From contig JACPIQ010000025.1 in assembly GCA_016188005.1 (NCBI GenBank), forward strand, positions 1 through 64,000: 64,000 nt of DNA, written 5' to 3'. Within the stretch, counting starts at the first letter, position 1; each line of letters starts with the position of its first letter. The notes under the pieces were generated by a model. That model did not search any database. It worked only from the letters and a program-made list of their open reading frames with translations, and had not been told where the DNA came from. This document shows, piece by piece, positions 2,456 through 31,302 of the stretch. Origin of the DNA: Candidatus Rokuibacteriota bacterium (GTDB taxonomy: Bacteria > Methylomirabilota > Methylomirabilia > Rokubacteriales > CSP1-6). Made by a program: the position numbers and the translations under genes.

Positions 2456-3547
2456 CTACTTGAGGGCAAGGACGTTGAAGGCGGGGACGGGCCGCGAGAA
2501 GCCCCTGAGGGCGAGATCGCCGGCGGGCTCGGCCTCGACCAGCGAGTCCACGCCCGCCAGCACCCGGCGCGGGACGAGGATCTGGCCCGGCCGAGCCTCT
2601 CCGCAGAGACGGGCGGCGAGATTGGTGACCGTGCCGATGGCACCGTAGTCCCAGCGCCCCTCGAAGCCGATGGCGCCAATCGTGGCATAGCCCTGGGCGA
2701 TGCCGATGCCGAAGTCGAGCTCGTACCCCTGGCGGCGCCACGTGACGATCAGCTCGGCGACACGCTCGCGCATGGCCACTGCCATGCGTACGGCCCGCGC
2801 CGCGGGATCGGGTACGGGCACCGGGTCGTTGAAGAAGATCATCATGCCGTCGCCGGTGAAGCGCTCGAGCGTCCCCTCGTGGGCCAGGATCAGCCGCCCC
2901 ATCTCGGCGTGGTACTCGCGCAGCACCCCCATCACCTCCTCGGGCTCGGCCGTCTCGGCGAAGGCCGTGAAGCCGCGGAGGTCCAGGAAGACCACGGTGA
3001 CCTCCCTCCGGTGGCTCTGGAGCGGATCGGCGGCATCCCCCGCCACGATGAGCTCGGCCAGCTGGGGGGAGAAGAAGCGCTTGAGCCGGCCGAGGCGCTC
3101 GAGCTGGGCCACCTGCTGGCGCACGCGCTCCTCCAGCGTCCGGTTCGACTCGGCGAGCTGGTCGTGGAGCGCCTTGATGCGCAGGAGCGAGCGCACCCGC
3201 GCCAGCAGCTCGGCGTGATTCACCGGCTTCGTGAGGAAGTCGTCGGCTCCGGCATCGAGGCCCTTGATCCGCTCCTGCGCCGGGTCCAGCGCCGTGACCA
3301 TCACCACGGGGAGCATGGCCGTCGCGGGATCCTCGCGGATCGCGCGGCAGACCTCGTAGCCACTCATCTCCGGCATCATGACGTCCAGCAGCACGAGATC
3401 GGGACGGTCGGCCGTGACCCTGTCGAGGGCCTCGCGCCCGGAGGCCGCCGTCGCCACCGCGTAGCCCTTCACCGCCAGCAGGTCGGCCAGGAGCTTCACG
3501 TTGTGCGGCGTGTCGTCCACCACCAGGATGCGGGCGGGGTGAGTCAC
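2456..3547 (-). CDS. Response-regulator receiver domain fused to a class III adenylate/guanylate cyclase (REC-CHD).
   Basis: It has an N-terminal REC domain (ILVVDDTPHNVKLLADLL...DLVLLDVMMPEMSGYEV with a phospho-acceptor Asp context). The C-terminus has cyclase-homology-domain hallmarks (VTVVFLDLRGFTAFAE, FTGDGMMIFFN, GTVTNLAARL). It overlaps the upstream RR gene by 4 nt. Confidence 0.85.
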   Translation of the reverse strand: MTHPARILVVDDTPHNVKLLADLLAVKGYAVATAASGREALDRVTADRPDLVLLDVMMPEMSGYEVCRAIREDPATAMLPVVMVTALDPAQERIKGLDAGADDFLTKPVNHAELLARVRSLLRIKALHDQLAESNRTLEERVRQQVAQLERLGRLKRFFSPQLAELIVAGDAADPLQSHRREVTVVFLDLRGFTAFAETAEPEEVMGVLREYHAEMGRLILAHEGTLERFTGDGMMIFFNDPVPVPDPAARAVRMAVAMRERVAELIVTWRRQGYELDFGIGIAQGYATIGAIGFEGRWDYGAIGTVTNLAARLCGEARPGQILVPRRVLAGVDSLVEAEPAGDLALRGFSRPVPAFNVLALK

Positions 3548-15598: not shown

Positions 15599-16447
15599 GT
15601 GATGCCCGCCGACGGGTCCACGCTGCTGGACAGGCTCCGCGCACTCTTCCCCGAGGCCTCGACGACCAGTCTGCACCAGTGGCTCCGCGACGGGCGCGTG
15701 CGCGTCAACGGGGCCGTGAAGCGCGACGGGCGCGCGGCGGTGGGCGCTCGGGACAGGGTCGGCCTCGGCGCGACGGCCTCCCGCATGCCCTTCCCCGCCG
15801 CGCTCCGCCTCGTGCACGAGGACGCCGATCTCCTCGTGATCGACAAGCCGCCGGGCCTCCTCACGATCGCCACCGATCGGGAGCGGGAGCGCACGGCCTA
15901 CCGGATGCTCTGGAGCTATCTCGGCGCCGGGCGCCCGCCGCAGCGCCCCTTCATCGTCCATCGCCTCGACCGCGAGACCTCGGGGCTCCTGGTCGTGGCC
16001 AAGACCCCGGCCGCCAAGCGCATCCTGCAGGAGCAGTTCGAGGCCCGCTCGGTGGAGCGCGTCTACGTCGCCCTCGTGGAGGGCCGGGTGCGCGAGGATC
16101 ACGGGACGCTCGTCGCGCAACTTGCCCAGGACCGCGGGCTGCGCGTGCGCGCCGCCCGCGACGGCAAGGAGGCCATCACCCATTACCGCGTGCTGGAGCG
16201 GGACGCGGCCGTGACGCTGCTCGAGCTGACCCTGGGCACCGGGCGGCGGCAGCAGATCCGGGTCCAGCTCGCCGGCCTGGGCCACCCCATCGTGGGGGAT
16301 GCGCGTCACGGCAGCGCGCGGAGCCCCATCGGCAGGCTCTGCCTTCACGCCACGCGGCTCGGCTTCGTCCACCCGCGGAGCGGCGCCGCCATGCGCTTCG
16401 AGAGCCCCGCGCCGGCCGCCTTCTCCCGCGTCGGCCGCGCGCTATAA
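15599..16447 (+). CDS. RluA-family 23S rRNA pseudouridine synthase with N-terminal S4-like domain.
   Basis: An S4-like segment (LHQWLRDGRVRVNGAVKRDG) and the catalytic HRLDRETSGLLVVAKT motif, plus QQIRVQLAGLGHPIVGD. It starts 4 nt after the permease stop. Confidence 0.85.
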   Translation: MMPADGSTLLDRLRALFPEASTTSLHQWLRDGRVRVNGAVKRDGRAAVGARDRVGLGATASRMPFPAALRLVHEDADLLVIDKPPGLLTIATDRERERTAYRMLWSYLGAGRPPQRPFIVHRLDRETSGLLVVAKTPAAKRILQEQFEARSVERVYVALVEGRVREDHGTLVAQLAQDRGLRVRAARDGKEAITHYRVLERDAAVTLLELTLGTGRRQQIRVQLAGLGHPIVGDARHGSARSPIGRLCLHATRLGFVHPRSGAAMRFESPAPAAFSRVGRAL

Positions 16448-16766
16448 TCGCCGGGCGCGGGCGGGCGATAGCCCGGGTGCCCGCCAGGGGAAAACGGGAC
16501 TCCCGCAGCGCGATCGAGCAGCCACACGCCGTGTTCCGGCGGGCGCGGGCGGGCGATAGCCCGGGTGCCCGCCAGGGGAAAACGGGACTCCCGCAGCGCG
16601 ATCGAGCAGCCACACGCAGTGTTCCGGCGGGCGCGGGCGGGCGATAGCCCGGGTGCCCGCCAGGGGAAAACGGCAGGGGAAAACGGGACTCCCGCAGCGC
16701 GATCGAGCAGCCACACGCAGTGTTCCGGCGGGCGCGGGCGGGCGATAGCCCGGGTGCCCGCGCCTG
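16448..16766. repeat. Tandem array of ~88-bp units (3 full copies plus a truncated fourth; copy 3 carries an internal 14-bp duplication) filling the whole rluA-SDR intergenic region.
   Basis: Seen directly: CGGCGGGCGCGGGCGGGCGATAGCCCGGGTGCCCGCCAGGGGAAAACGGGACTCCCGCAGCGCGATCGAGCAGCCACACGC(A/C)GTGTTC repeated head-to-tail. The last partial copy runs into CCTGGTGAAGGAGG and then the ATG of the SDR gene. Each unit contains a GC-rich hairpin (GCGGGC GGGC GAUA GCCC GGGU GCCCGC). Confidence 0.85.
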
Positions 16767-16781
16767 GTGAAGGAGGCTTCC

Positions 16782-17573
16782 ATGGCCGCATCGCCGTTCT
16801 CGCTGGAAGGCAGGATCGCCATCGTCACCGGGGGGGGCCTGGGCATCGGCCGCTCGATCTCCCTGGAGTTCGCCCGCGCCGGCGCCGACGTCGTCGTGGC
16901 GAGCCGCAAGCTCGAACACCTGGAAGCCGTGGTCGCCGAGATCAAGGCGCTGGGCCGCCGCTCCTTCGCCATGGCGGTGGACGTGCGCCAGGAGGACGGC
17001 GTGAAAGCGCTCGTGGAGCGCACGGCCCGGGAGCTCGGGCGGCTGGATGTCATGGTGAACAACGCCGGCGCCTCCTTCCGCGCCAAGCCCGAGGAGATCT
17101 CGCCCAATGGCTGGAACGCCGTGATCGGGATCAATCTCAACGGCGTCTTCTTCGGCTGCAAGTGGGCGGGGCGGCAGATGATGAGCCAGGGCCGCGGCGT
17201 CATCATCAACATCGCCTCAATCGCCGGCGTCTACGGCTCGACGATGATGCCGCATTACGGCGCCGCCAAGGCCGCCGTCATCAACTTCACCCGCAGCCTC
17301 GGCATGGCCTGGGGACGCCAGGGCATCCGCGTCAACTCCGTCGCCCCCGGCCCCGTCGAGACCGAGGGCTACCTCGACGTCCTCCACAAGACCAACCCGG
17401 ACGCGAAGAGGACCTACGACGCCGTGGCCAACCGCGTGGGCATGGGCCGCTGGGGGCGCGTGGAGGAGATCGCCTACCCGTGCATCTTCCTCGCCTCCGA
17501 CGCCTCCTCGTTCATGACAGGGGAGACCATCATCGTGGATGGCGGCCCGGCCCCGCACCTCGGCGAGGGGTAG
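16782..17573 (+). CDS. SDR-family oxidoreductase (3-oxoacyl-ACP-reductase-like).
   Basis: It has a TGGGLGIG Rossmann motif, NNAG, a catalytic YGAAKAA (YxxxK) motif and PG. The ATG at 16782 sits 6 nt after GAAGGAGG. Confidence 0.85.
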   Translation: MAASPFSLEGRIAIVTGGGLGIGRSISLEFARAGADVVVASRKLEHLEAVVAEIKALGRRSFAMAVDVRQEDGVKALVERTARELGRLDVMVNNAGASFRAKPEEISPNGWNAVIGINLNGVFFGCKWAGRQMMSQGRGVIINIASIAGVYGSTMMPHYGAAKAAVINFTRSLGMAWGRQGIRVNSVAPGPVETEGYLDVLHKTNPDAKRTYDAVANRVGMGRWGRVEEIAYPCIFLASDASSFMTGETIIVDGGPAPHLGEG

Positions 17574-21583: not shown

Positions 21584-21652
21584 GATGGGCAGAGTCGAAC
21601 GTGTCGCTCGCAGTGAAGTGAGTTTATCATGACGCAACCGAGGCGGTCGAAA

Positions 21653-21841
21653 CGGGGGTGACGGCGCCTGAGATCGCGCGAGGAGACCCGCCCAGCGCAA
21701 CCATCCGGCGGGGGCGGGCGTGGCGACAGCCCGGGTGCCCGCCCCTGTGGGGGTGACAGCACCTGAGATCGCGCGAGGAGACCCGCCCAGCGCAACCATC
21801 CGGCGGGGGCGGGCGTGGCGACAGCCCGGGTGCCCGCCCCT
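21653..21841. repeat. Tandem array of two ~96-bp units immediately upstream of the LLM oxidoreductase gene. The 3' module is homologous to the 16448..16766 repeat units.
   Basis: GGGGGTGAC(G/A)GC(G/A)CCTGAGATCGCGCGAGGAGACCCGCCCAGCGCAACCATCCGGCGGGGGCGGGCGTGGCGACAGCCCGGGTGCCCGCCCCTG occurs twice, followed by GTGAAGGAGCCATCGCATG. Each unit contains a 9-bp GC stem (GGGGCGGGC ... GCCCGCCCC). Confidence 0.85.
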
Positions 21842-21858
21842 GGTGAAGGAGCCATCGC

Positions 21859-22800
21859 ATGCGCATCGGCATCATGATCGAGGGACAGGAGGGGCTCACC
21901 TGGGAGCGCTGGTTCAGGCTCGCGCAGGCCGCCGAGGATCTCGGCTACGAGTCCCTGTGCCGCTCCGACCACCTGACGGGGCTCGCCGGCCAGTCGCGGC
22001 GGCCGTCACTCGAGACGTGGACCTCGATCGCGGCGCTGGCGACCCGCACGCGGCGCATCCGCTTCGGCCCCCTCGTCTCCCCCCTCACCTTCTACCATCC
22101 GGCGCTGCTCGCCAAGATGGCGGCGTCCGTGGACGCGCTGTCGGGCGGCCGGGTCGACCTCGGCATCGGCGCCGGCTGGAACGCGTACGAGCACGCGATG
22201 TTCGGGCTGCCGTTCCCCCCTCTCAAGGAGCGCCTCGATCGCCTCGAGTGCGGCGCCCGGCTCATCCGGGCTCTCGGCGTGGGCCAGCCCGTCACGCTCG
22301 AGCAGCCCTATTTCCCGCTCCTCAGGGCCGAGAGCCACCCCCTGCCGCGCCACGGTCGGCTACGGCTGGTGATCGGCGGGCGGGGCGAGCGCCGAACCCT
22401 GCGGATCGTGGCGGAGTTCGCCGACGAGTGGAATGTGACGCGCGTGGACGTGGGGGGCTTCCGCCAGAAGCGCCAGGTGCTGGCCGAGCACTGCCGGGCC
22501 GTCGGCCGCGATCCCGAGACCATCACTCGCTCGCTGATGGTCCCCCTGGCCCTCGGCGCCGACCCGGCCGACGTGGCGCAGCGGATCGGCGCCGCCCGGG
22601 CCATCTTCCCCGTCCTGCCCGAGGACGAGGAGGGCTGGCGCGCGGCGGGCTTCCTGGCCGGCTCCCCGGAGGCCGTCGCGCAGGATCTCCGGTGGTGGGC
22701 CGAGGCCGGAATGGAGCGGGTCCTCCTCCAGCTCCTGGATCAGGAGGACATCGCGGCGCTGGAGCTCTTCGCGCGGGCCGTGATGCCCGCCCTCGCCTGA
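21859..22800 (+). CDS. LLM-class (luciferase-like) flavin/F420-dependent oxidoreductase.
   Basis: MRIGIMIEGQEGLTWERW...SLCRSDHL...GRVDLGIGAGW is the typical LLM N-terminus and TIM-barrel block organisation. It is 313 aa. Confidence 0.8.
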   Translation: MRIGIMIEGQEGLTWERWFRLAQAAEDLGYESLCRSDHLTGLAGQSRRPSLETWTSIAALATRTRRIRFGPLVSPLTFYHPALLAKMAASVDALSGGRVDLGIGAGWNAYEHAMFGLPFPPLKERLDRLECGARLIRALGVGQPVTLEQPYFPLLRAESHPLPRHGRLRLVIGGRGERRTLRIVAEFADEWNVTRVDVGGFRQKRQVLAEHCRAVGRDPETITRSLMVPLALGADPADVAQRIGAARAIFPVLPEDEEGWRAAGFLAGSPEAVAQDLRWWAEAGMERVLLQLLDQEDIAALELFARAVMPALA

Positions 22801-28483: not shown

Positions 28484-29412
28484 CTACTTGCCGAGCCGGC
28501 GGCGCAGTCCCTCGCAGGGATCCGGCCGCACGGCCGGAGGCGTGAGCCAGACGATGTCGCCCGTTGCCTCCCGCACCACCTCGCCCGGATCGTCCCCCGG
28601 ACGCGCCTCGAGCAGCTCGACCACGAGCTGACGCGTCCCGGGCCGCAGCGCCTCGAGCTGGGCAGGCAGGCCGCCGGGCGCCTGATGGCCGCGCCCGGCG
28701 ATCACCACCACCTGCGGCGCCTGCCCGAGCGCCTCGGCGAGCCGCCGGGCCCCTCGGCGAGCCGCCGGGCCATGGCCACGTTGCGCGCATGCCAGCTCTC
28801 CACCATGGTGGGGATCGCCCGCTCGGGCAGCAGATCGCAGTGCCCCTCCTGGATGCTCCGGGCGATGGCCGCCTCCCGCCTGGGATCGGGAGGGAGCAGG
28901 GAGGCGAGACGCGCCCCGTCCGCCGACACCGCCAGCCCCTCCCGCGCGATCCGCCGCACGAGGGCGGGCTCCAGATCCGTCGCGAGGACGCGCAGCCTGT
29001 GCTGCCGCGCCACCTCGAAGAGCGGCCAGTACATGGCGAAGTCCGGCCAGCCCGCCCGGCTCCAGCCGAGCGCGGCATCGAGCTCGGCCGGCCCGCCGGA
29101 GGCGCCGAGCGCCTGATCCACGGTGCTCTGCCGCTCCGCGGGCAGCATCTCGAAGGCCACGACCGGGCGGGCGCCCTCTGCCAGCAGGGCCTCGAGCACC
29201 CGGCGCTGCTGGGCGTGATGGTGGGGGTTGTCGTGCACCTCGCCGAGGTAGAGCACCTCGACGCCGCGGGCGCTCTGCGCGACCAGGCCCGCCTGGCGCC
29301 CGGAGTCGCCAGACAGGGCGAGCACGAGGGAGGCCGGGCCGATGCCGGCGGGGGCGGCGCAGGCGGAGAGCAACAGGGCCGTCGCGGCCAGGAGTCGTAT
29401 TTCGATTATCAT
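28484..29412 (-). pseudogene. ChaN-like (Tiki/TraB/GumN superfamily, PF04187-like) lipoprotein gene disrupted by a ~20-bp tandem duplication.
   Basis: The N-terminal frame reads MIIEIRLLAATALLLSAC (lipobox)...VLYLGEVHDNPHHHAQQRR...ARNVAMARRLAE and then frameshifts. The duplicated CCTCGGCGAGCCGCCGGGC sits at 28731..28770. Removing one copy restores the frame into ...ALGQAPQVVVIAGRGHQAPGGLPAQLEAL...CEGLRRRLGK, which is track ORF 28484..28711 -. Confidence 0.65.
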
Positions 29413-29421
29413 GGCCCCATT

Positions 29422-31302
29422 ATGAGCCTTCCCGGGTGGTGGCGGGAACGCCGGGCGCGTGTCCTGCAGCTCTGGGGGGTGGGCATGGCCGCCAGCTTGC
29501 TCGTCACCGCGGCCTCCTCCCTGGGCTATCTCGAAGCCCTCCAGGCCCGGAGCGCCGACATCCTGATACACCTCCAGGGGCAGCGATTCGCCCCCGAGGT
29601 GGTGGTGGTCGCCATCGACGAGGAGGCCTTCGAGTCGCTCGGCCGACGCCAGCCCCTGCCCCGTGACTACCTCGCCAGGCTGCTGCGCGGGCTCCAGCGC
29701 GCCGGCGCCGCGGTGGTGGGAGTCGATATGGCGTTCAGCACCCCCACCACCGAGGCCGACGACGGGGCGCTGGCCCGGGCGATCACGGACTTCTCCGATG
29801 GGGGCGTGAGCCGCGTGGTCCTGGTGGAGGCGCCGCCTCCCAGGACCGGGCCCCTGGCCGACCCCGCCTTTCTGGGCTCGGTGCTCCGCGGAGCGGCCGA
29901 CGTCCCCCTGGACCGGGACGGGGTGATCCGTCGCGTCGCTCTCCTCTTGCCGCGGGGCTCGGAGCCGCCGCTGCCCGCCCTCTCGCTGGCCGTCGTGGCG
30001 CGCCTGGCGGGGCTGACCCGGGGCATGCTCGAGATCTCCCTCCGGGAGCGCGGCGGCATCTCGCCGCCCGCCTGGCGCGTCGGCGGAGGCTGGAGCCTCG
30101 TCGGGACGCCAGCGCTGGCGCTCCGGTCCAACGAGCTGTGGCGCATCAATTACGTGGGGCCCGCGGGCTCCTTCCTCGCGATCCCGAGCGGCGCCGTGGT
30201 GGCGCTGGCGGAGGACACGGCCGAGCTGGCCGCCGACAACCCGCTGCGCGGGCGGATCGTGCTGGTCGGGGGCACCTACGGCGAGAGCCGGGACTTCTAC
30301 CCGACGCCCCACGGCAGCATCGCCGGCGTCGAGGTGCACGCCAACGTGATCCACATGCTCGTGACCGGCTCCCACATCCGGCCCTCCGGCTGGGTCAGGA
30401 GCCTCGCCTTCCAGATCGCCATCGTCATGCTGGCCGGCGTCGTGATGGCCATCCTCCGTCCGCTGGCTGGCACCCTCGTCTGCCTCACGGCGGCCGTGCT
30501 GCTGGGGGTGCCCGCCTCGTACCTCGCCTTCCAGCGCAGCGGCTACTGGGTGGACTTCCTCCTGCCCGTCATCGTCACCTCGCTCCTCGGCCTCGTGGCG
30601 GAGGGGTTGGCCCGCCGGCGCTTCCGCGACTCCTTCGGTCGCTACGTGAGCCGGGAGATCGCCGCACAGGTGCTGGCCGAGGCCCCGAGCCTCCGCGGCG
30701 AGCGCCGCGCGGTTTCCATCCTCTTCTCCGACCTGCGCGGCTTCACCACGCTGTCCGAGACCATGCCCGCCGAGCAGGTGGCCGCGCGCCTCACCGAGTA
30801 CTTCGAGGCGATGACCGCCGCGATCTTCGCCCACCGCGGCATGATCAACGACTTCGTGGGCGACGGGATCGTCGCCATCTTCGGGGCGCCGCTGGCAGAC
30901 GCCGAGCACGCCTGGCACGCCGTGCTGAGCGCGGAGGCCATGCAGCGGGCACTGGACGGGCTCAACCGGCGCTGGAGCGCCGCGGGGCTCCCGACGCTCC
31001 GCATGGGCATCGGCGTCCACACCGGGCAGGTCTTCGTCGGCAACGTCGGGGGCGCCGCGCGGGTCAAGTACACGGTGGTCGGCGATCCCGTGAACCTGGC
31101 CTCCCGCGTGGAGGGCTTGAACAAGGAGCTCGGAACGACGATCCTGATCACCGAGGAGACGCGAGCGCTGGCCGGGGAGCGGGTGGAGGCCAAGGACCGG
31201 GGCCTCATGGCCGTCAAGGGCCGGAGCCAGCCGGTGCATGTCCACGAGCTGTTGGCGGTGCATGCCGAGCGCTGCCCGCCGCCGGGGGGAGGCGCGACAT
31301 GA
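29422..31302 (+). CDS. CHASE2 extracytoplasmic sensor domain fused to a class III adenylate/guanylate cyclase.
   Basis: From the ATG at 29422: MSLPGWWRERRARVLQLWGVGMAASLLVTAASSLGYLEALQARSADILIHL... It has a CHASE2-type periplasmic region, then TM helices, then CHD blocks (AVSILFSDLRGFTTLSE...FVGDGIVAIFGAP...GIGVHTGQVFVGNVG...YTVVGDPVNLASRVE). Confidence 0.8.
   Translation: MSLPGWWRERRARVLQLWGVGMAASLLVTAASSLGYLEALQARSADILIHLQGQRFAPEVVVVAIDEEAFESLGRRQPLPRDYLARLLRGLQRAGAAVVGVDMAFSTPTTEADDGALARAITDFSDGGVSRVVLVEAPPPRTGPLADPAFLGSVLRGAADVPLDRDGVIRRVALLLPRGSEPPLPALSLAVVARLAGLTRGMLEISLRERGGISPPAWRVGGGWSLVGTPALALRSNELWRINYVGPAGSFLAIPSGAVVALAEDTAELAADNPLRGRIVLVGGTYGESRDFYPTPHGSIAGVEVHANVIHMLVTGSHIRPSGWVRSLAFQIAIVMLAGVVMAILRPLAGTLVCLTAAVLLGVPASYLAFQRSGYWVDFLLPVIVTSLLGLVAEGLARRRFRDSFGRYVSREIAAQVLAEAPSLRGERRAVSILFSDLRGFTTLSETMPAEQVAARLTEYFEAMTAAIFAHRGMINDFVGDGIVAIFGAPLADAEHAWHAVLSAEAMQRALDGLNRRWSAAGLPTLRMGIGVHTGQVFVGNVGGAARVKYTVVGDPVNLASRVEGLNKELGTTILITEETRALAGERVEAKDRGLMAVKGRSQPVHVHELLAVHAERCPPPGGGAT

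Follow-up and report, generated by a model that had tools for sequence, protein, structure and literature searches.

Positions 1 to 64,000 of contig JACPIQ010000025.1, from a metagenome-assembled genome (MAG) of a Candidatus Rokuibacteriota bacterium (hereafter the window), contain an rluA-type pseudouridine synthase gene followed by an SDR gene, and the spacer between them consists of tandem, hairpin-bearing units. We are confident that this spacer represents a local head-to-tail amplification of a lineage-specific interspersed hairpin repeat of Rokubacteria. The array is an amplified genomic repeat that resembles repetitive extragenic palindromes (REPs) and mycobacterial interspersed repetitive units (MIRUs); it is not a dedicated leader or riboswitch of the SDR gene. 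The family is abundant, lineage-restricted, sense-oriented and found abutting start codons; its structure is kept and its presence and copy number are labile. No counterpart of the family was found in Rfam or the literature, the core sequence being absent from the literature searched, and the family is a hitherto undescribed one among the intergenic hairpin repeats known from bacteria.

Rokubacteria, which are uncultured, abound in soil and groundwater, and their genomes are unusually large. By rough extrapolation a genome would hold about 150 clusters of the repeat, and the family may make up a visible part of Rokubacteria non-coding DNA. Non-coding sequence accounts for 8-17% of Rokubacteria genomes, and the genome paper mentions no repeats (PMC5712423).

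The array in the rluA-SDR spacer

The upstream gene (PseudoU_synth_2, RluA-type, 15599-16447) and the SDR gene (16782-17573), both assigned by Pfam, are separated by 334 nt from stop to ATG. Tandem Repeats Finder (TRF), exact matches, unit alignment and a covariance model (CM) search with scores of 53.6-70 bits together place four hairpins and three linkers with an 88-nt period on the + strand (16452..16761); since the window derives from a MAG, the exact copy number of this near-perfect tandem repeat may be mis-assembled. TRF reports a period of 88 with 2.5 copies and 99% matches for 16452-16673, and a period of 101 with 1.9 copies and 100% matches for 16573-16761. The 28-nt hairpin GCGGGCGGGCGATAGCCCGGGTGCCCGC, which folds as GCGGGC-GGGC-GAUA-GCCC-GGGU-GCCCGC, has exactly four exact copies in the window, where shuffles expect 0. 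These lie on the + strand at 16457..16484, 16545..16572, 16633..16660 and 16734..16761, the latter three each identified by exact match, fold and CM (70 bits for the terminal copy), and are separated by linkers of 60, 60 and 73 nt. Copies 1 and 2 differ by a single C/A, and the third linker carries a 13-nt tandem micro-duplication of CAGGGGAAAACGG (16661..16686, + strand; TRF period 13, 2.0 copies, 100%), which is a slippage signature. Near-identity of the units together with this micro-duplication indicates amplification by replication slippage or unequal recombination. The original prediction, made from the letters alone, had thus correctly described near-identical tandem units of ~88 nt with one C/A difference and a nested hairpin in each; its internal duplication is present, with a length of 13 rather than 14 nt.

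The terminal hairpin runs directly into GCCTGGTGAAGGAGGCTTCC and then the SDR ATG, as had been predicted. Its tail GCCTGGTGAAGGAGG (16762..16781, + strand) carries the Shine-Dalgarno sequence (SD) AAGGAGG (16770-16776), at a spacing of 5 nt from the ATG at 16782. The prediction had also held that the spacer is not a CRISPR array, a coding region or a terminator and belongs to no named riboswitch class, and we agree on every count. Linkers between hairpins are identical within an array, so that the unique spacers of a CRISPR are lacking; the scan found no terminator-like site in the spacer, and there is no T-tract; and Rfam 15 returned no family at the gathering threshold for the whole window and only noise at E<=10 for the two arrays described here, the sole CRISPR-DR match having E = 8.9.

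Upstream, the hexamer TATAAT (16443..16448, + strand) covers the last codon and stop of rluA (TAA 16445-16447), and hairpin 1 begins ~9 nt past it. TATAATC is perfectly conserved at the rluA stop in 5/5 orthologous loci (window, L080, L081, L083 and L084), with diverged flanks; a simple promoter scan detected no matching -35. In a genome of 72% GC this candidate -10 looks like that of an internal SDR promoter embedded in the end of rluA.

A second array upstream of a monooxygenase gene

A second array of the same family, missed by the original prediction, consists of two units of 95 nt at 21654..21842 on the + strand (TRF 2.0 copies, 97%), with hairpins at 21711-21745 and 21806-21840 that score 65.9 and 74.4 bits against the CM. 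The hairpin contains the common core GGCGAYAGCCCGGGTGCCCGC, and the units of the two arrays (A, rluA-SDR; B, the present one) align end to end at ~65% identity. Array B lies 5' of genes for a luciferase-like monooxygenase (LLM) and TerC, and is divergent from an ATP-grasp ligase gene (Pfam). Its tail CCTGGTGAAGGAG with SD is followed by N7 (21839..21858, + strand) and the LLM ATG at 21859. On its 5' side stands a -10-like box, TATCAT (21625..21630, + strand), a putative promoter element; cagtcTATCATG is conserved in L085, L087, L088, L089 and L090. Both arrays thus lie between a conserved -10-like box and a native SD, and are therefore most likely inside 5' untranslated regions (UTRs). An nhmmer search of the window found no family copy beyond arrays A and B.

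Family distribution

A search with an exact 21-nt core shared by the units, using one genome per species, gave 79 loci, nearly all of them in MAGs of Rokubacteria, Rokuibacteriota or Methylomirabilota, several of which have at least 10 loci each. The CM, which describes the hairpin structure, identified 111 hairpins in 619 kb, and the density of the family is about one cluster per 30-40 kb. Adjacent hairpins among these 111 copies are arranged head to tail in 30 pairs and inverted in 1, the head-to-tail periods favoured being near 65, 87-95 and 128 nt. The sole inverted pair (L069, 5890-6036) has its hairpins 35 nt apart and is REPIN-like. True copies also occur in L002, L063 and L046, MAGs labelled Alphaproteobacteria, Thermodesulfobacteriota or 'uncultured bacterium', which may reflect mis-binning or a wider host range.

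Matches of the exact 21-mer in Alcanivorax, Porticoccaceae, Streptomyces and Actinomycetota were rejected as family members, having other flanks that look coding-like by eye and being missed by the CM. In the Alcanivorax, Porticoccaceae and other gammaproteobacterial records (L009, L024, L032, L038, L049, L059 and L074) the 21-mer sits in mutually conserved, coding-like flanks, and these matches call for caution in pattern-only searches.

Unit structure and covariation

Alignment of 49-50 full units gives the consensus ggnTGAcGGCgnCTGAGATCGcGCGA - variable A-rich segment - aGCGCGAgnTTCCGGCGGGG - GCGGGCG(t)GGCGAYAGCCCGGGTGCCCGC - CCnnGGTGAAGGAG. A full unit measures ~88-95 nt, with shorter and longer subfamilies, and comprises a 5' block ggnTGAcGGCgnCTGAGATCG with two TGA triplets in different frames, a variable A-rich linker, gCGCGAgnTTCCGGCGGG followed by a hairpin of ~45 nt, and the tail CCnnGGTGAAGGAG, which is common to most terminal copies and is or overlaps the SD of the next gene. 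The unit carries ~55 nt of conserved non-palindromic sequence beside its hairpin.

The hairpin has an invariant top of 28 nt and a covarying lower stem of 3-5 bp. When 76 copies are aligned in the correct register, the pair immediately beneath the invariant top (13-43) is GC in 36, CG in 23 and UA in 9. The stem covariation score was reached by 0/500 shuffles, and slid registers drop to 30-51% paired, which substantiates the nested hairpin of the original prediction as a genuine structure. Diverged copies that lack the exact 21-mer have compensatory upper stems (ACGGGC/GCCCGU, CUGGGC/GCCCAG and GUGGGC/GCCCAC), and in these copies GGC-GA(Y)A-GCC-CGGG-N, comprising a GAYA loop and a 3' CGGGU bulge, is nearly unchanged. 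In the stem it is the pairing that is kept, in the loop and bulge the sequence, a pattern characteristic of hairpins that a specific factor recognises. Stem mismatches are equally rare, with G.U at 18 and A.C at 21.

Beyond the hairpin we find no conserved fold. RNAalifold, run on a MAFFT alignment of the 49 full units, returned only invariant pairs, but there the core was fixed by the search pattern and gaps broke the register, and it was superseded by the explicit structure and CM alignment. The second small stem of the original prediction, GGGACUCCC, has 3 bp and occurs in the unit A subfamily only, the family alignment showing no conservation of it. A long-range helix of CUGAGAUC with GAnUUCCGG, suggested by single-sequence folds, was rejected since it is 60.7% paired versus 58.6% when shuffled, with slid registers giving alike values. 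Segments of 57 nt around hairpins fold at -19 to -40 kcal/mol, and in most of their minimum-energy folds the SD is largely unpaired; the z-score for folding of the full leader is only -2.4.

Two linear signals were likewise discarded. For a sigma-70 promoter internal to the unit (TTGACG ... GAGAAT), spacing and -10 are by eye inconsistent across copies, and the window scan found none; a stop codon in the tail (GGTGAAGG) is not a conserved signal, about 1/5 of tails reading GGTCAAGG. In L007, L023, L042, L047 and L056 an AT-rich box (cgcTTATATAGG, cgcTTATAAAGT, gcTATTTATAGT or gccTCATAAGA) replaces the SD tail 3' of the hairpin; the boxes of this subfamily look like a -10, and the loop GACA ~18 nt upstream is a possible -35 remnant. 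L040 (~3050-3300) has three tandem units of ~87 nt, of which the upstream copies have a truncated hairpin (gcgggcgtggcgacc-gcggagtcgcgac) missing its 3' arm and the last is complete.

Genomic context

A same-strand ORF start with high GC at third codon positions (GC3) lies at most 70 nt downstream in 55/68 core clusters, compared with 11 for the opposite side, and the commonest distance from core end to ATG is 19-23 nt. A random-position control for a start within 70 nt proved too permissive (35%), because internal in-frame codons count, and strand asymmetry and a context census of 81 CM-defined clusters were used instead. In this census, 35 clusters are sense and 2 antisense between co-directional genes, 6 have a divergent gene on one side and a same-strand start on the other, and ~6 face the end of a convergent gene. 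A further 13 were called inside an ORF, most likely because the crude gene caller reads on across the GC hairpin, which has no stops.

The 54 non-redundant downstream proteins represent 96 Pfam families, none of which occurs in more than two proteins. Products include aldehyde and acyl-CoA dehydrogenases, periplasmic binding proteins, IlvD, NuoD, ThiF, UbiD, malonyl transferase and thiolase, and other downstream genes are rpsQ, a glnB-like PII gene, fabD and transporters. Copies are also found inside essential operons, between nuoC and nuoD (L029, L060 and L066) and between rpmC and rpsQ (L017 and L077). The lack of relation among downstream genes and these operon-internal copies rule out a ligand-specific regulon. 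At nuoC-nuoD (L066 1023-1209, - strand, and also L029 and L060) three hairpins of a short-linker subfamily (gGACGAGCGAAGCGAGCC) occur with a 65-nt period, and the nuoD start seems to fall within the element tail (gccATGGTGAatggc). At rpmC-rpsQ (L017 4795-4932 and L077 889-1026) the L29 frame apparently enters the unit for ~45 nt and ends at a TAG before TTCCGGCGGGG, so that the element seems to give L29 a C-terminal extension.

The upstream gene's stop coincides with the element's own conserved TGA in ~10/35 co-directional clusters, the triplet being that of ggnTGAcGGCG at no fewer than 8 loci and that of gcTGAgatcg in 2 groups. Since the same triplets are present where no upstream co-directional gene exists (array B, L012, L031 and L060), they belong to the element, and being 11 nt apart they close two reading frames. 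The tail contains GGAG or GAGG in 44% of terminal copies versus 18% of internal array copies (p = 0.013). Internal tails are graded (aGGTGAaGaaGG, GGTCAAGGACAG, GGTCGACGGCG and GGGTGACaGC) and form a transition from the tail into the 5' block of the unit that follows. Together with the difference between terminal and internal copies, this indicates that the SD-like tail is part of the repeated unit and stays intact only before a gene. Neither a start codon nor a reading frame is conserved across the element, an optional T in the hairpin shifting the frame in about half of the copies, so that coupling by a MIRU-type -4 overlap is not one of its features; unit lengths are not divisible by 3, and ATGA overlaps, seen in 13/40 cases, are at about chance level.

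Orthologous loci

The rluA-SDR pair is syntenic in relatives, and SD and ATG are common to all five genomes compared. In L080, whose SDR is 95% identical, the spacer is 33 nt and has no element. L081, L082 and L085 (SDR 92%) have a spacer of 144 nt with one full unit (CM 62.9 bits, stem AUGGGC/GCCCAU), the linker of which appears by eye to be alignable with unit A. Unrelated sequence with 0 hairpins fills the spacer in both L083 (SDR 86%, 76 nt) and L084 (SDR 84%, a longer spacer). The window has four hairpins at this locus.

Similar polymorphism is seen upstream of the LLM gene, where the window has two full units in the spacer to the ATP-grasp gene. The site is empty in L085, L088 and L090 (LLM 85-86%; TATCATGgcgccAGGAGGccatcacATG, 66 nt) and in L089 (LLM 82%; same type as L085, 38 nt). 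The relative closest to the window, L087 (330-396; LLM 91%), has a 5' block (TGACGGCGGCgggTGAGATCG; TGACGGCGGCgggTGAGATCGatcc) and no hairpin, followed by aGGGGGa-N9-ATG; this hairpin-less remnant may be a deletion derivative. Copy numbers of 0/1/4 and 0/partial/2 at orthologous sites show that both window arrays are recent and dispensable expansions, which from these alignments appear to have arisen or expanded within the window's own lineage.

Gene content around the rluA-SDR pair varies among the relatives (L080 5036-5598, L085 11383-12103 and L083 4404-4912), this being a variable hotspot with differing toxin-antitoxin modules (PemK, PIN/PhdYeFM and ParE-like) and an Mrr restriction gene.

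Comparison with known intergenic repeats

MIRUs insert at the start of the downstream gene, which is thought to minimise the impact on expression, and contain a small ORF coupled to that gene by a -4 overlap (PMC12548453). The present element is like a MIRU in having units of ~50-100 bp in variable head-to-tail arrays at many loci, in sense orientation within operons and with copy numbers that differ among relatives. It differs in having no conserved through-ORF, the downstream gene being served by the SD in the tail, in being built on a strong hairpin, and in its host phylum. To our knowledge its consensus is unrelated to mycobacterial MIRU sequences.

With REPs and the related bacterial interspersed mosaic elements (BIMEs) and REPINs it shares the form of a short extragenic palindrome, rich in GC and present tens to hundreds of times, with a stem conserved in pairing and a conserved loop, often clustered, plausibly transcribed as RNA hairpins and varying in abundance among related genomes (PMC3733652, PMC3116915). 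REPs measure 20-40 bp, and the present hairpin, at ~45 nt, is likewise a short imperfect palindrome with many extragenic copies. However, REPs have an unpaired GTAG or CGTC tag at one end, and in REP families head-to-tail dimers are lacking or depleted and inverted pairs (HH/TT) predominate (PMC3733652). Here GTAG and CGTC each occur in the flanks of 1/111 copies, the flanks being TTCCGGCGG and CCnnGGTGAAGG, and head-to-tail pairs outnumber inverted ones by 30 to 1. Whereas REPs lie mostly 3' of coding regions, between unidirectional or convergent genes, the Rokubacteria copies lie 5' of starts, agreeing in the unidirectional part. The repeated unit moreover includes the ~55 nt of non-palindromic sequence and the SD.

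BOX elements of Streptococcus pneumoniae, for which effects on neighbouring genes' expression have been reported, have the organisation boxA-boxB(n)-boxC in an AT-rich host and are not known to stand in a fixed relation to SD or start. Like them, the present element is a modular intergenic repeat with a variable tandem module and a predicted stable RNA, often near gene starts, but its sequence and module organisation are unrelated. Correia elements of Neisseria (NEMIS) measure 100-155 bp, have 26-bp terminal inverted repeats and a TA target duplication, and occur in both orientations; they are abundant, co-transcribed and often located in 5'UTRs, where the mRNA hairpin can alter stability or processing. 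The likeness is that of an abundant miniature element with a hairpin near genes. The Rokubacteria element, unlike Correia elements, lacks terminal inverted repeats, has a hairpin that is local, and occurs strictly in sense orientation and in tandem arrays. It represents a third design of operon-compatible intergenic repeat, which joins hairpin, stops and ribosome-binding site, next to the 3' hairpin of REPs and the coupled mini-ORF of MIRUs.

Interpretation and alternatives

If the spacer is an amplified interspersed repeat, both arrays would be transcribed within the SDR and LLM 5'UTRs, as family copies would be with their neighbours, and each unit is predicted to form a highly stable stem-loop outside which the SD stays unpaired. 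With stop codons and an SD of its own, the element would be able to sit in operons and leaders without abolishing expression, as is thought for MIRUs, and the persistence of sense copies only could be due to this preserved expression. By analogy with REP/BIME and BOX, the stem-loops may impede exonucleases or RNase entry and so stabilise the mRNA, the more so with more copies. The invariant loop and bulge would imply recognition by one trans-acting protein, perhaps a mobilising enzyme specific for hairpins, perhaps an RNA-binding protein.

Several points weigh against this interpretation. No mobilising gene was found in the 681 kb searched, and tblastn with RAYT and IS608 TnpA gave no match there, a weak test given that these 681 kb are not whole genomes; the region of L066 that is bracketed by inverted copies holds lipA and nuoABC, which are housekeeping genes. 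The term mobile is drawn from distribution and occupancy polymorphism, and the same pattern would arise if copies had been gained by recombination or if ancient ones had been lost differentially. An insertion inside the SD (GAG|GAG) with a 3-nt duplication fits L081 and array B but is contradicted by the left flank of L087, and is at best tentative. A genuine regulatory regulon would equally account for the strongly conserved loop and bulge and for the constant spacing to the SD, and the G.U and A.C counts give no sign of selection at the RNA rather than the DNA level. Finally, all sequences are MAG or metagenome assemblies, in which repeat copy numbers may be imprecise.

A global post-transcriptional regulon, in which an RNA-binding protein or small RNA at the GAYA loop and CGGGU bulge jointly tunes translation or stability of >100 mRNAs and arrays give cooperative binding, is an unlikely alternative. 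It would account for the loop and bulge being invariant in sequence while the stem covaries, for the fixed hairpin-to-ATG distance and the 35:2 sense orientation, and for an SD retained only in terminal copies, but it sits poorly with close relatives whose orthologous genes are wholly without the element, with 0 to 4 copies at a single locus, with targets that are single genes within essential operons (nuoC-nuoD, rpmC-rpsQ) and 96 unrelated families, and with internal array copies that have no gene to regulate. Such a regulon is compatible with an amplified repeat, and by analogy REPs may be cited, which have been co-opted likewise. More doubtful is a mobile 'stop codon - hairpin - Shine-Dalgarno' cassette that would home to translation-initiation regions via a hairpin-recognising enzyme, its orientation and distance being set by the insertion mechanism and not by selection alone; the invariant loop and bulge of such a cassette might also be a platform for a global RNA-binding factor. 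If this were true, Rokubacteria would possess a genome-wide, copy-number-tunable layer of post-transcriptional control.

The original prediction had offered a tandem riboswitch or attenuator, operators for a redox regulator, or a satellite. The idea of an amplified riboswitch or attenuator through which oxidoreductase genes would respond to a metabolite or redox signal is effectively refuted: both window arrays do precede oxidoreductases (SDR and LLM) and the element does lie in the leader abutting the SD, but across the family the downstream genes are functionally unrelated, falling in 96 Pfam families, one simple hairpin is supported and the long-range helix fails, Rfam gave no match even at E<=10, and the SDR and LLM orthologues of relatives can be without the element, copies numbering 0/1/4 at the former. 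Nor does the unit always precede oxidoreductase genes, a point that the original prediction had put up for checking, since copies precede rpsQ, nuoD, glnB-like PII, fabD, ilvD and transporters; that both loci in the window show such a link is coincidental. Double-stranded DNA operators, i.e. a palindrome bound by a dimeric transcription factor and repeated for stronger repression, are highly improbable for redox or other regulators. The near-palindrome does lie 3' of the -10-like box and 5' of the start codon, the position from which a roadblock repressor would work, and the G.U and A.C mismatches are symmetric; half-sites nevertheless change by compensatory substitutions that preserve pairing and not sequence, the conserved loop and bulge are asymmetric, the strong strand orientation to genes is unneeded for a symmetric operator, and many copies lie inside operons with no promoter near. 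It is also very hard to maintain that the units are U-tract-less ('I-shaped') terminators or insulators for the upstream gene. Very stable GC hairpins, at -25 to -40 kcal/mol for each 57-nt segment, do follow directly 3' of stops at some loci (array A; nuoC in L029/L060/L066), but without a T-tract and with a position that follows the downstream start and not the upstream stop (~0 to >200 nt from stop to hairpin); copies moreover lie inside the nuo operon and the ribosomal-protein operon and, as array B does, in divergent promoter regions. A satellite comes closest among the options of the original prediction, with the correction that the copies, though scattered genome-wide, are not scattered randomly but lie 5' of genes, and that the stem covaries.

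Taken as an amplified interspersed repeat, the element offers a ready phylum-level marker and possibly a strain-typing marker for metagenomes in the style of variable-number tandem repeats. It explains assembly breaks and mis-called ORFs, in that spurious ORFs and extended starts run through the GC hairpins, and is a warning against reading tandem hairpin leaders as riboswitches. It also raises the question of how a non-coding element lands so precisely before start codons.

Additional sequence feature

The window further contains a perfect duplication of 20 nt x2 (CCTCGGCGAGCCGCCGGGCC, 28732-28771) within a high-GC3 ORF on the + strand (28546-31302). The length of this duplication is not a multiple of 3, and it may therefore be frameshifting or an assembly artefact.

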